Assembly: GCF_044324785.1 (NCBI RefSeq)
Contig: NZ_CP172127.1
Reading direction: 5' to 3' (one strand)
DNA: 64,000 bases
Origin: Escherichia coli
Lineage (GTDB): Bacteria > Pseudomonadota > Gammaproteobacteria > Enterobacterales > Enterobacteriaceae
Positions 44,939 through 48,130 of the stretch are shown one piece after another. Numbering within the stretch: position 1 is the first letter of the stretch; every line of letters starts with the position of its first letter. Made by a program: the position numbers and the translations under genes. The notes beneath the pieces were generated by a model. The model was given only the letters and a program-made list of their open reading frames with translations. It was not told where the DNA came from and searched no databases.

Positions 44939-45117
44939 AATTATGACCCTGTAGAGTGGTTGCTTGATTAGGATGTATTTCCATCAGTCCGCCACCACAA
45001 AGAATCTTTTTTGCCATAAGGCAGGAGGTTCATCTTTCAGTGGCTGCCAGTGTTATTTTTCCCACTTACTGGCTTGGGTTGTTTCGCTGTACTGCCGTTA
45101 ATTGGTGAGTCCGGGGA

Positions 45118-45603
45118 TTATTTCAGTTCGTTACCAGGCATTTCTTTTAGCTCTTTCAAATGACAACGATTGAGACTAAACCACTCCCCGTGCGACCTAT
45201 AGTTGTAATATTTTTGGTGCAATTTGGTTTCAAGCTCTCTATCGGCCGGAATCTTTGCAATTAGACTTAGCTTCCCACCACTCATGCGAGATATCTCTGA
45301 AATTCGTTTATTAACCCTGCGACTAAACCCTATTTTTGTTAGCCCACTATCTTCAGCATGCAGAACGTACACATATGATTTTTGCGAAGCACTGGGTGCG
45401 ACTTTGTTGTAATTAATCATGTCAAACATGAAGCCTTGCTTTAGCAAAGTTTCAAAAAAGATAGAATTAACACACCCATTCCTTCTCAGCTCTGAACTTA
45501 GCTTGTCAATTTCCTCTATGATGTCGCCAGACCCCTTTCCACTTATAAGAAAATCTTGGTACATGCGACCAATTCTTGAGGTAATTTCAACAAAGTTATT
45601 CAT
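45118..45603 (-). CDS. T5orf172 (GIY-YIG-like) domain protein, 161 aa
   Basis: C-terminal half YVYVLHAEDSGLTKIGFS...RISEISRMSGGKLSLIAKIP...ELETKLHQKYYNYRSHGEWFSL fits the T5orf172 pattern; strongly AT-rich relative to its neighbours. Confidence 0.6.
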   Translation of the reverse strand: MNNFVEITSRIGRMYQDFLISGKGSGDIIEEIDKLSSELRRNGCVNSIFFETLLKQGFMFDMINYNKVAPSASQKSYVYVLHAEDSGLTKIGFSRRVNKRISEISRMSGGKLSLIAKIPADRELETKLHQKYYNYRSHGEWFSLNRCHLKELKEMPGNELK

Positions 45604-45943: not shown

Positions 45944-46381
45944 TCATCGAAGGCATTGCATCCTGATGTACTCCTGCAGGTAGTTAACCTGCGCGGTTAT
46001 CTTGTCGATTCCACTTCGGAGACGGTAATAATTGAGTTCAGCATCTGCTGTAAGTCCTGGGCTTTCTCCATCGCCCATGCCGCCGGCTCCGGTCGTTGAC
46101 TTTGCACAGGTGGCGGCGACTTGCAGGCGCTTACGCCCAGCAGAAACATCAGCACGGAGACTTTCGATAGTCGCGTTAGCATCAGCAAGCTCCTTTGTGT
46201 ATCTGGCGTCAAGTTCTGCTACATCACGTTGACGCTTCTGCATGTCAGCGATGATGGATGCGGCCTTATCGCGCTGCTCTTTGTAGGCGATGGCGTTATC
46301 ACGGTAATGATTAACAGCCCATGACAGGCAGACGATGATGCAGATAACCAGAGCGGAGATAATCGCGGTTAACCGACTCAT
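45944..46381 (-). CDS. i-spanin Rz (from ATG 46381)
   Basis: [39 protein letters not shown]... is near-identical to the lambda Rz N-terminus as I recall it. Confidence 0.85.
45997..46212 (-). CDS. o-spanin Rz1 (lipoprotein embedded in the +1 frame of Rz)
   Basis: Lipobox LLGVSAC followed by a Pro-rich region; lies entirely within Rz in another frame; the true start is probably an internal Met. Confidence 0.7.
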
Positions 46382-46469
46382 GACATCAACACCCCAACGG
46401 CCAGAAACCACGGCCACGCATCGTTGCCATTAAATGCGAGCAACGCTGCCATGAAAAAGCAAATCATGC

Positions 46470-46973
46470 TCATTGCTGCCCCCACAAACAGACTTCACGC
46501 TCAATCTCACGACGAGTCATCAGCCCTTTCCATTGCTTACCTCCAGCGTATGTCCAGCGACGTAGCTGGTCACATGCACCTTTGATATCGCCCTGGTTTA
46601 TTTTGCGAAGAAGCGTCGATGTTCTGAAATTGCCTGCACCCACGTTGTAGACGAACGAGTAAAGAGCGCCGCGCGTTGTTTCCGGTATATCGACTTTGAT
46701 GTACGGGTTAATTTGTCTGGCGACAGTGGCAAGGTCTTTATTCAGGAGGGCTTTGCACTCTGCTTCGGTATACGCTTTACCGAGCATGATGTCTTTTCCG
46801 GTGTGTCCGTGACATACAGTCCATACACCAACAATATCTTTGTATGGTATGTAGCTGACACCTTCCAGGCCATCGTTACCACTTGGTCCAGTGATTAACA
46901 CAGATGCTATAGCAATAGCCCCGCCACTTATCGCCGCTATTACGCTATTTCGTAGTGCCGGTGACATTGCCAT
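46470..46973 (-). CDS. SAR endolysin (phage 21 R-type lysozyme)
   Basis: N-terminal Gly/Ala-rich signal-anchor-release domain ([19 protein letters not shown]) followed by a T4-lysozyme-like catalytic triad region ([23 protein letters not shown]). Confidence 0.85.
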
Positions 46974-47148
46974 TCAATCTGTCCTCGCGCTCTTTGCGCT
47001 TGTAGTACCAGTTGATGCCAAATGTGCCGACAGTACAAAGAATACCAATGATGACAGCCCAGTCATTCAGGGAGAGAATGCCACCCATCGCAGTCAGTCC
47101 TCCGAAACTGTAACTGAACCATTCTCTGATTTTGTCCATACGGTACAT
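46945..47148 (-). CDS. Class II holin (pinholin-like) with dual-start motif
   Basis: 67 aa with two TM helices; N-terminus M-Y-R-M gives two in-frame starts separated by a basic residue; overlaps the endolysin start. Confidence 0.7.
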
Positions 47149-47392
47149 GCTCTACCCCTTCATTGAGGGGATTTGCTCTATTTAATTAGGAATAAGGTCG
47201 ATTACTGATAGAACAAATCCAGGCTACTGTGTTTAGTAATCAGATTTGTTCGTGACCGATATGCACGGGCAAAACGGCATGAGGTTGTTAGCGCAGCCTC
47301 TTGCCACCCGCTTTCACGAAGGTCATGTGTAGAAGGCCGCAGCATAACTATCACTGATGAATTCAGGATAGCCAGTGGCTACGGCTCAGTTA

Positions 47393-47468
47393 TGGTGCTG
47401 GTTAACGGACTTGAACCGCTAGCCATTCGCTTACAAGGCGACCGCTCTACCATTGGAGCTAAACCAGC
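47393..47468 (-). tRNA. Prophage-encoded tRNA (76 nt; anticodon read as UGU, Thr)
   Basis: Hand fold of GCTGGTT...AACCAGCACCA: 7-bp acceptor stem, D-arm GCTC/GAGC, T-arm AGCGG-TTCAAGT-CCGTT, CCA encoded; the anticodon stem has one mismatch. Confidence 0.55.
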
Positions 47469-47473
47469 ATGTT

Positions 47474-47548
47474 TGGCGGGACAGCGTGGACTCGAACCAC
47501 GATAAGAAGGTTAACAGCCTTCCGTAATGACCTTTATACGACTGACCC
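47474..47548 (-). tRNA. Prophage-encoded tRNA-like gene (75 nt; anticodon read as GUU, Asn), possibly degenerate
   Basis: T-arm CGTGG-TTCGAGT-CCACG and anticodon arm GAAGG-CTGTTAA-CCTTC are clean; the acceptor and D stems each have one mismatch; CCA encoded. Confidence 0.45.
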
Positions 47549-47611
47549 GAATAAAAAAAGCCACCGTTGCAACTTAAGAGTCACTAACGGCAGCTTACCT
47601 TCTAATTATTG

Positions 47612-48130
47612 CTAAATGGATAATTGCATGTCAAGGCTTTTAACAGCAACATGCTTAACTTTCTCAACACGTTTACGCATTTTGAAAGCATTTTGCATTG
47701 GCTGGTACAAAACAAATAACGATGCTTTCAGGATGTCGTCAATTTCGTTTCTACAGGTTGCCAGTGAAGGTTTTCTCCATCCCTCGCCACCACGTCCACA
47801 CATCTTGCGTGGCTTTGCAGTCGCGTGATAGTAGGATGCAATTGCTCGCTTAGATGAACCATGAGCGTAGTAGCTGAGGAGGATGCCAAAGGCTTTCTTG
47901 TCAATGCACATGACGGAATCGACGACCTGAGAAATCAACATTCCATCATCATCATTGCACATTGGCCTTGTCATAACTCTTCCCGGCTCTACGCTCTCCA
48001 TGAACTTCGCTATTACGCTGCTCATGCGCTTTTCCAGACGACCTGAATAAACCCATGCGCCCCACAGTTCAAGCCAGCCATTCAGCCACTCATGCTGTTC
48101 TTTGGTGAGGTTTAGTTCTCTTATGCCCAC
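47612..48130 (-). CDS. Late-gene antiterminator Q (933W/phage-21 type)
   Basis: Shares the WGAW...RP-C-DDD...LL-YY pattern with 933W Q as I recall it; positioned between the nin region and the tRNA/lysis genes. Confidence 0.7.

Follow-up and report, generated by a model that had tools for sequence, protein, structure and literature searches.

A late leader with tandem Asn and Thr tRNA genes downstream of a phage 21-family Q in a P22-like prophage of Escherichia coli

Organization of the late region

The window analysed here, a stretch of 64,000 nucleotides of Escherichia coli DNA (assembly GCF_044324785.1, contig NZ_CP172127.1), carries proA, the tRNA-Thr(CGU) gene thrW and an integrase junction at 61.3-62.5 kb. 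The packaging, head and DNA-injection genes of the prophage were of the P22/HK620/Sf6 type, with 96.8% identity to HK620 over 78% coverage and about 95% identity to Sf6. Because these HK620/Sf6-like structural genes occur together with an integrase beside thrW, the prophage is an HK620/Sf6-like podovirus of the P22-like group (Lederbergvirus) inserted at thrW. Its late region is encoded on the minus strand, on which all features described below lie, in the order Q, tRNA-Asn(GUU), tRNA-Thr(UGU), a 244-bp spacer, holin, endolysin and Rz/Rz1. The placement of two tRNA genes between Q and the lysis genes, proposed in the initial annotation, was borne out by ARAGORN, Rfam and Pfam, and the tRNA-to-holin distance given there proved exact, since 244 bp lie between the 3′ end of tRNA-Thr at 47393 and the holin ATG at 47148.

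The holin (46945..47148) is a class II protein of the HP1 family (Pfam PF16080, 75 bits; PHROG 20, holin), and its start, read from the sequence as M1-Y-R-M4, is a dual-start motif. The endolysin, a phage lysozyme (46470..46973; Pfam PF00959, 154 bits) annotated as lysozyme RrrD in E. coli genomes, would be SAR-like, judging from its Gly/Ala-rich hydrophobic N-terminus. The spanin Rz (45944..46417; Pfam PF03245, 118 bits) contains Rz1 embedded in another frame (~46182-45997), an open reading frame with the lipobox LLGVSAC.

The spacer (47149..47392) is a non-coding late leader homologous to positions 44942-45170 of lambda (J02459), directly upstream of S. The two segments are collinear and 95% identical, with the homology starting at the 3′ end of tRNA-Thr, and the spacer was nearly invariant across Sf6, BTP1 and HK75 despite their differing holin types and tRNA contents. 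Lambda shares this leader segment, including a hairpin over the holin ribosome-binding site, but differs in Q, pR′ and tR′ and has no tRNAs upstream of the segment. A degenerate third tRNA, which had been suggested as a possible occupant of 47149-47392, was not found there: ARAGORN made no call, and Rfam at E ≤ 1 returned only a chance snoRNA-like match at 15 bits. No promoter was found in the same interval. A 50-aa open reading frame in the spacer (47354-47202) was rejected as a gene, as it had no Pfam match, was interrupted by stops in about 15 of 90 homologues and showed variable sites distributed 14/13/17 over the codon positions, that is, with no bias.

At the holin end of the spacer, the hairpin CCCCUCAAUGAAGGGG (47155..47170) was predicted by folding, its 3′ arm overlapping the Shine-Dalgarno sequence of the holin gene. 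Its CCCC/GGGG stem was retained among relatives, while the loop varied between holin types. This hairpin is the counterpart of the one upstream of lambda S, which is known from published work to act in translational control, and by this analogy it may control translation of the holin in the prophage as well.

The late promoter and the terminator

The late promoter pR′ (47605..47634) consists of a -35 hexamer TTGACA (47634-47629), an 18-nt spacer and a -10 hexamer AATAAT (47610-47605), so that 11 of 12 consensus positions are matched. It overlaps the stop codon of Q (TAG, 47614-47612), and its homologues in Sf6 and HK75 are annotated as pR′. The initial annotation had directed the search for pR′ and qut to 47149-47392; both are absent from that interval and lie ahead of the tRNAs, over the 3′ end of Q. 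Since a promoter scan found no further candidate on the minus strand between pR′ and the holin, a promoter of their own for the tRNAs or the lysis genes was rejected. According to the -21/-13 register described for phage 21 (PMC6606751), transcription from pR′ would start at about 47598.

The intrinsic terminator tR′ (47553..47596) comprises a hairpin at 47596-47558 and a U-tract of seven U at 47559-47553. The hairpin has a predicted free energy of -21.5 kcal/mol (z = -4.1), and none of 200 shuffles folded as well. It is annotated as tR′ in Sf6 and HK75, and its exact 35-mer is present in at least 120 viral contigs. The -10-like element TAAGCT (47592..47597), conserved in both subtypes of the Q21 family described below, is probably a sigma-dependent pause element, as the general mechanism of Q proteins would suggest. 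The tRNA-Asn gene begins only 4 nt past the U-tract of tR′, and the tRNA-Thr gene follows another 5 nt past tRNA-Asn.

A Q protein of the Sf6/HK75/BTP1 subtype

The late-gene antiterminator Q (47612..48130) is a protein of 172 aa that matched Pfam PF06530 (Phage_antitermQ) with 90 bits and the crystallised Q of phage 21 (PDB 6JNX) with E = 2.6e-91 over residues 1-162, a second structure, 6P18, also matching with E of about 1e-91. It shares 97-99% identity with the Q proteins of Sf6, BTP1, HK75 and phage L and 85% with those of 1717 and JLK-2012, whereas only 79 of its 172 aa could be aligned to the Q of 933W, at 32% identity. The label of a 933W-type Q given in the initial annotation was therefore wrong, and the protein belongs to the phage 21 family.

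In phage 21, two TGAGCA direct repeats located between -35 and -10 form the Q-binding element (QBE), in which the C:G pairs at positions -21 and -13 are critical, and the residues of Q21 that contact bases include H95, R127 and R128 (Shi et al., PMC6606751). The candidate analogue of the QBE in the window (47610..47623) lies in the register of the phage 21 TGAGCA repeats, but its repeats read TTATCC (47623-47618) and TTAGCA (47615-47610) and thus differ from the published TGAGCA/TGAGCA pair. The Q of the window in turn carries R95 and N128 instead of H95 and R128, with R127 retained. By positional homology with the element of PMC6606751, these repeats may act as the binding element of this Q.

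The same arrangement recurred in related phages. In the window, Sf6, BTP1, HK75 and phage L, the repeats at this register read TTA(G/T)CC and TTAGC(C/A), and Q has 172 aa and carries R95 and N128. The phages 1717 and JLK-2012 combine two TGAGCA repeats with a Q of 162 aa that carries H95 and R128. The pairing of repeat type with contact residues held in 42 of 42 and 65 of 65 of the collected loci, the latter being the R95/N128 type. The variant of the window itself, TTATCC…TTAGCA with a -10 of AATAAT, occurred once in the locus set. Phage 21 shares with the window the Q family and fold template, a promoter over the 3′ end of Q, an identical tR′ 35-mer and the TAAGCT -10-like element; its Q has 162 aa, against 172 in the window. 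Because the repeats and residues 95 and 128 differ, the Q of the window is a member of the Q21 fold family of the Sf6/HK75/BTP1 subtype and not of phage 21 proper. From these sequence differences, the subtype is distinct from Q21 and probably differently specific.

The Q21 family as a whole falls into two subtypes, between which the DNA-contact residues known from the published work switch in step with the promoter repeats. This pattern suggests two specificity classes, although physical linkage could explain the pairing of residues and repeats.

Detection and structure of the two tRNA genes

The tRNA-Asn(GUU) gene (47474..47548) has 75 nt and the tRNA-Thr(UGU) gene (47393..47468) has 76 nt. 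Both were called by ARAGORN, with anticodons gtt and tgt, and both scored well above the 29-bit gathering score of Rfam RF00005, at 55.3 bits (E = 7.4e-11) and 61.2 bits (E = 1.8e-12), respectively. The provisional anticodon calls (UGU and GUU) and the encoded CCA of both genes were thereby upheld, and the earlier proviso that tRNA finders might reject the two candidates fell away. The scores of comparison tRNAs were 73.8 bits for host thrU, 72.6 for host asnT, 54.8 for argN of 933W and 53.4 for host tyrU, so that both phage tRNAs lie 12-17 bits under host thrU and asnT.

The stem mismatches that had been noticed by hand folding are real. The acceptor stem of tRNA-Asn contains U4·U69, the T-T pair that had been reported, and its D stem contains U13·U22; the discriminator base of this tRNA is G73. 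In tRNA-Thr there is a G27·A43 mismatch, C14 replaces the usual A14, and the pair at 15-48 is A15-U48. The conserved set formed by U8, A14, G18-G19, U33, T54-Psi55-C56, A58 and the 3′ CCA is complete in tRNA-Asn and deviates in tRNA-Thr at C14 only, which was invariant among 60 related loci. The Levitt pair 15-48 covaries, being A15-U48 in tRNA-Thr of the window and G15-C48 in thrU and in the copies of P1-like phage-plasmids. Recognition of tRNA-Asn depends on G34, U35, U36 and G73, and that of tRNA-Thr on G1-C72, C2-G71, G35 and U36, in addition to A73; all of these identity elements are present in the respective tRNAs of the window. The anticodon loops of both are equal to those of host asnT and thrU. 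A recent origin from host genes was rejected, given identities of only 62% to asnT and 68% to thrU.

Folding of the single sequences was not significantly better than that of shuffles (z = -1.7 and -1.4), and the minimum-energy fold of tRNA-Thr was not a cloverleaf. Single-sequence folding was here uninformative as a test for tRNAs, and the covariance model and pair counts were used instead.

Conservation, variation and loss of the tRNA genes

Related loci were gathered from about 120 viral contigs by the exact tR′ 35-mer. The tRNA-Asn was identical in 54 of 64 related loci and was the most conserved element of the leader, with a nucleotide diversity of 0.007, compared with 0.017 for tRNA-Thr and 0.047 for the adjoining spacer, that is, 3-7 times lower in the tRNAs. 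In diverged homologues, 94-96% of cloverleaf cells were paired, against 23-57% in slid registers; these pairing alignments took in copies from P1-like plasmids and host genes, and an apparently unpaired 49-65 cell in the tRNA-Asn alignment was an artefact of a MAFFT gap in the T stem. Pairs had changed on both sides at 9 places in tRNA-Thr and 13 in tRNA-Asn, the two-sided, pair-preserving changes of tRNA-Thr being located at 3-70, 5-68, 28-42, 29-41 and 49-65. Even among 60 close relatives, G5-C68 of tRNA-Thr was replaced by U-A and A49-U65 by G-C. The fixed exceptions to the cloverleaf were U4·U69 and U13·U22 in tRNA-Asn and G27·A43 in tRNA-Thr; U4·U69 itself was fixed in 60 of 64 loci and had been mended to a wobble pair (G·U or U·G) in two haplotypes. 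The tRNA-Thr of the window differs from the commonest haplotype only at the unpaired positions 26 and 47.

Degraded copies were found as well. One decayed relative (L049) has the anticodon GAU and two stem transitions, ARAGORN made no call for the second tRNA of phage L or of JLK-2012, and U33 is mutated in three tRNA-Asn haplotypes. Other leaders of the same spacing without a tRNA call (L080, L096, L099, L116 and others) were considered as decayed tRNAs and rejected, since they contain unrelated filler of ~170 nt. Among 113 loci with an identical tR′, 58 have a full tRNA-Asn and 46 a tRNA-less filler; because such fillers are found behind the same terminator, the tRNAs are dispensable for the module. 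The suspicion in the initial annotation that one of the two genes may be a pseudo-tRNA is unlikely to hold for the copies of the window, whose scores fall in the accepted range and which belong to lineages with pair-preserving changes and low diversity. On these sequence grounds, both tRNAs are genuine and probably functional.

Known counterparts

A close described counterpart is Shigella phage Sf6 (AF547987), with 97.6% identity over a stretch reaching from the 3′ end of ninI, across Q, pR′, tR′ and the two tRNAs, to the end of the 244-bp leader. Its record annotates gene 59 as Q, together with pR′, qut, tR′, tRNA-Asn and tRNA-Thr, and notes pR′, qut and tR′ each as similar to phage 21. The two phages differ in the holin, which is lambda-type S107/S105 in Sf6 and HP1-family class II in the window, the junction lying at the hairpin just before the start codon. 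Within the shared segment, the window departs from Sf6 by G26 and C47 of tRNA-Thr and at 47610 in the -10/QBE region, where it has A and Sf6 has C. The Salmonella phages BTP1, SPN9CC and vB_SosS_Oslo are 96-97% identical from Q to endolysin and have the same holin type and annotated tRNAs, differing in their Salmonella hosts and in minor substitutions.

Outside Q leaders, a tandem of tRNA-Asn and tRNA-Thr in the same order, with 2-5 nt between them, is carried by P1-like phage-plasmids of E. coli. Their tRNA-Thr is 83% identical to that of the window, with pair-preserving differences in the stems, while their tRNA-Asn is only 62% identical, fully paired and without U4·U69. A tandem Asn/Thr pair downstream of Q was described for SfI, and the same position was noted in Sf6, ST64T, PS3 and p21 (PMC3636060). 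Among 5,426 complete E. coli genomes, about 354 have the pair annotated by PGAP. The Asn/Thr late-leader module is therefore already known, being annotated in phage records and discussed for SfI, and it carries little weight as a discovery, as it appears in Sf6 and many later phage records and is called by routine pipelines. The value of the present analysis is one of correction: the prophage is no Stx phage without its toxin, Q does not belong to the 933W type and the tRNAs are probably not pseudogenes.

Codon usage and expression of the tRNAs

The ACA codon made up 34% of Thr codons in the late genes of the prophage and 15% in flanking host genes, a sample of 18 genes only, which corresponds to an odds ratio of 3.0 (p = 5e-10) and to rank 6 of 61 codons. 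The AAC codon was not enriched, accounting for 50% of Asn codons in late genes and 63% in host genes, with a total Asn use of 53 and 47 per thousand, respectively. The window thus reproduces the published result for SfI, in which an ACA bias and no Asn bias were reported (PMC3636060). Because ACA is about twofold enriched in late genes, tRNA-Thr(UGU) fits codon supplementation and most likely boosts ACA decoding in these genes. For tRNA-Asn, there is no codon-usage rationale.

These observations fit a scheme that we consider highly probable, in which the region is a standard late leader of a phage 21-family Q, in a P22-like prophage at thrW, with two functional phage tRNAs as cargo. In the absence of Q, RNA polymerase starting at pR′ would stop at tR′, about 45 nt downstream. 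By homology with Q21, Q would load at its promoter-embedded site onto polymerase paused at the -10-like element and form a nozzle on the RNA-exit channel, by which terminator hairpins would be blocked. Readthrough of tR′ would then extend transcription into tRNA-Asn, tRNA-Thr, the 244-nt lambda-type leader, the holin, the endolysin and the spanins. Because the tRNA genes begin 4 nt past tR′ and have no promoter of their own, they would be made on Q-antiterminated late transcripts, in addition to some leakage through tR′. Host tRNA-processing enzymes would cut them out of the late transcript with the CCA already encoded, and the products may be aminoacylated and may benefit phage fitness. In the transcriptomic study of BTP1 (PMC7067206), the two tRNA genes were left aside when highly expressed prophage genes were listed, and the lytic operon was taken to start directly after the tRNAs. 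These data are compatible with tRNAs on Q-modified late transcripts, and the separate treatment of the homologous tRNAs is indirect evidence of their expression.

Relation to Stx phages and alternative explanations

The initial annotation had described the locus as the architecture of a Stx phage without its toxin cassette. The order in 933W is Q, pR′, qut, terminators, pT, ileZ-argN-argO, stx2AB, two ORFs and S, and the toxin position stated there, between the tRNAs and the holin, agrees with this record. The window and 933W have in common an antiterminator, a promoter and terminator, tRNA genes and lysis genes, with cargo placed in a Q-controlled leader. In 933W, a stretch of about 370 bp and a separate putative promoter lie ahead of the tRNAs, and stx2AB and two further ORFs lie ahead of S; the window has none of these, and it also differs in the number and identities of its tRNAs. 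The Asn and Thr tRNAs are unrelated to ileZ-argN-argO, with which the initial annotation had proposed a comparison, the 55-65% identity being generic tRNA similarity. A tblastn search of the window with StxA2, StxB2, the S protein of 933W and L0105 gave nothing better than E = 1.4, and for StxA2 and StxB2 no match was better than E = 1.8. Thus, what stood of the earlier description is the use of the same cargo site in the Q leader, between tR′ and the lysis genes, which is common to many non-Stx lambdoid phages; a 933W-type Q, the ileZ-argN-argO set and stxAB or its remnants are all lacking, and the window does not represent a Stx phage deprived of its toxin.

In Q21-type Stx2c phages (1717, 2851 and others), the junction between the shared leader and the Stx cargo module was seen to fall within a truncated tRNA-Asn. 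Only 73 bp are shared with the window, made up of tR′ and about 24 nt from the start of tRNA-Asn, and these are followed by ileZ-like/Arg/Arg tRNAs and stx2c. Because it is the Stx2c phages that carry the truncated tRNA-Asn, the comparison suggests that the intact Asn-Thr leader is the ancestral state and not a derived one.

A derivation of the locus from a Stx-phage late region by loss of the toxin cassette could draw on the placement of tRNAs and stx between tR′ and S in 933W, and on the tR′ and partial tRNA-Asn of the Stx2c phages. The latter point rather to the opposite direction of change, as the truncated gene sits in the Stx phages, and further evidence speaks against such a loss: the Q is unlike that of 933W, the tRNA set is different, similarity to Stx, L0105 or the S of 933W was not detected in the window, the spacer is an uninterrupted lambda leader and the prophage is HK620/Sf6-like at thrW. 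We regard this origin as exceedingly improbable. Somewhat less remote, yet still improbable, is the view that at least one of the genes is a pseudo-tRNA, a decaying relic whose transcript is neither charged nor used. The stem mismatches and C14, the scores under those of host thrU and asnT, the absence of the pair from about 40% of otherwise identical leaders, the degraded copies in the decayed relative, phage L and JLK-2012, and the tRNA-Asn without a codon-usage rationale, both in our own counts and for SfI (PMC3636060), would all be expected of relics. Decay would not readily account for a diversity 3-7 times under that of the flanking spacer, for stem changes that are two-sided and wobble-preserving, or for a window copy whose only departures from the common Thr haplotype are at positions 26 and 47, both unpaired; moreover, the identity elements and anticodon loops match those of the host, the scores equal those of the accepted argN of 933W and host tyrU, and PGAP annotates both genes.

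Another reading is that the tRNAs serve mainly non-decoding purposes, as RNase P/RNase E processing sites at which the tR′ leader is cut off and the 5′ end of the lysis mRNA is formed, as replacements or decoys resistant to tRNA-targeting toxins of the host or of competitors, or as recombination hotspots that mark module boundaries. We consider this unlikely. It would explain why tRNA-Asn is conserved more strongly than any other part of the leader and yet has no codon rationale, why U4·U69 is fixed in nearly all loci, and why mosaic junctions fall exactly at the 3′ end of tRNA-Thr and, in the Stx2c phages, inside tRNA-Asn; the lytic operon start placed right after the tRNAs in BTP1 (PMC7067206) could likewise be a processed end. 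On the other hand, the anticodon loops are the same as those of host asnT and thrU, so that evasion of anticodon nucleases by loop changes is not indicated, leaders without tRNAs are equally common, and a conventional reason for tRNA-Thr is already at hand in the ACA enrichment.

A related and similarly doubtful proposal joins two separate parts, that tRNA-Asn is not mainly for decoding and that Q is a specificity variant of Q21 orthogonal to the Q of phage 21. As to the first part, tRNA-Asn may not be for decoding because it combines a diversity of 0.007 and the lack of a codon rationale with the fixed U4·U69 pair. It could act as a replacement or decoy resisting tRNA-targeting toxins that act outside the anticodon loop, or as an RNase P processing site that detaches the tR′ leader from the lysis mRNA. 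As to the second part, R95/N128 would pair with repeats of the TTAGCC type.

Covariation of Q Residues and Promoter Repeats

Judged from the sequences compared, the Q21 family is composed of two subtypes, between which residues of the late antiterminator published as contacting DNA switch jointly with the repeats of its promoter. The first subtype, found in phage 21 proper, the Stx2c phage 1717 and JLK-2012, combined H95/R128 with two TGAGCA repeats, and the second, found in the window, Sf6, BTP1, HK75 and phage L, combined R95/N128 with TTA(G/T)CC followed by TTAGC(C/A). All loci examined, 42 of 42 and 65 of 65, showed this association between residues and repeats; they comprise the comparison loci L001-L007 and the viral contigs gathered through the tR' sequence. 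In the window, the repeats are placed at 47610-47623, paired with residues 95 and 128 of the Q gene (47612-48130), and the configuration TTATCC…TTAGCA with a -10 element AATAAT was exclusive to the window among the compared loci.

Altered and Replaced tRNA Genes

Downstream of Q, the Q21-type Stx2c phages retained the 21-type tR', but of tRNA-Asn no more than the initial ~24 nt, one of them substituted (1717, L005 3501-3573, versus window 47525-47597), beyond which they diverged into their own tRNAs and stx2c. Since only this initial portion is kept, the junction of the Stx cargo lies inside a truncated tRNA-Asn gene.

Approximately 40% of the leaders with an identical tR', namely those of HK75 (L003 ~1590-1790) and of some 46 viral contigs (L080 and L096 among them), presented an unrelated, tRNA-less filler of ~170-300 nt where the tRNAs otherwise stand. 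The HK75 filler ended in the T-arm-like GGTTCGATTCC, and in all tRNA-less leaders the filler was closed by the motif CAGCACAACC, which is similar to the tRNA-Thr 3' end. From this resemblance, the motifs at the filler end may be a tRNA relic.

The second tRNA was altered in two phages, neither copy being called by ARAGORN. In phage L (L006 1341-1412; 42 bits), a Thr-type acceptor stem was combined with a UAA ('Leu') anticodon arm, and in JLK-2012 (L007 2629-2704; 49 bits) the gene was a hybrid Thr(UGU) that resembled thrU in its 3' half and contained the mismatch A52·C62, followed by tRNA-Gly and tciAB.

Variant copies of tRNA-Asn were also found in viral contigs. The normally invariant U33 was altered in three separate haplotypes, L016, L091 and L105 (to C, C and A, respectively), and the discriminator G73 was replaced by U in L016 and L064; these changes could reflect sequencing error, a relaxation of constraint or selection acting on the anticodon loop. 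In another contig, L049, the homologue of tRNA-Asn carried three transitions, which turned G10-C25 and G53-C61 into G·U pairs and the anticodon GUU into GAU, and it was called 'Ile' by ARAGORN. This contig has a phage-21-type S holin, and its lambda-type leader is shortened, the sequence upstream of S21 standing instead.

Tandem tRNA Pairs on Plasmids

A tandem tRNA-Asn/tRNA-Thr pair, in the same order as in the window and separated by 2 nt, was found at 752 plasmid places, including E. coli plasmids of 84-94 kb (L008 1473-1625; L012 1125-1278) that look like P1-type phage-plasmids. Their tRNA-Thr shared 83% identity with that of the window, differing by pair-preserving changes in the stems, whereas their fully paired tRNA-Asn shared only 62%. 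The Thr gene seems to be common to unrelated temperate phage types, as is perhaps the whole Asn/Thr pair.

Leader Hairpin and Neighbouring Features

A CCCC…GGGG hairpin (47146-47170, minus strand) overlaps the Shine-Dalgarno sequence of the window's holin, whose N-terminus, M-Y-R-M-D-K, is a motif of the dual-start holin/antiholin type. The stem was conserved but the loop varied between the lambda-S-type and class II holin versions, which places the leader/holin mosaic junction inside the hairpin.

In 933W, 1717 and JLK-2012 (L004 2778-3037; L005 5422-5633; L007 3609-3781), Rfam matched the sRNA STnc100, which lies downstream of stxB in the first two phages and of tciAB in the third. In 933W it also matched the anti-stx2 sRNA AsxR. 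Both sRNAs are absent from the window's leader.

A 161-aa ORF (45118-45603, minus strand), situated between Rz and the terminase small subunit, matched PHROG 4284, of unknown function (E = 8e-75), and weakly an endonuclease PHROG. It may be a moron; at its position, BTP1 carries rha.
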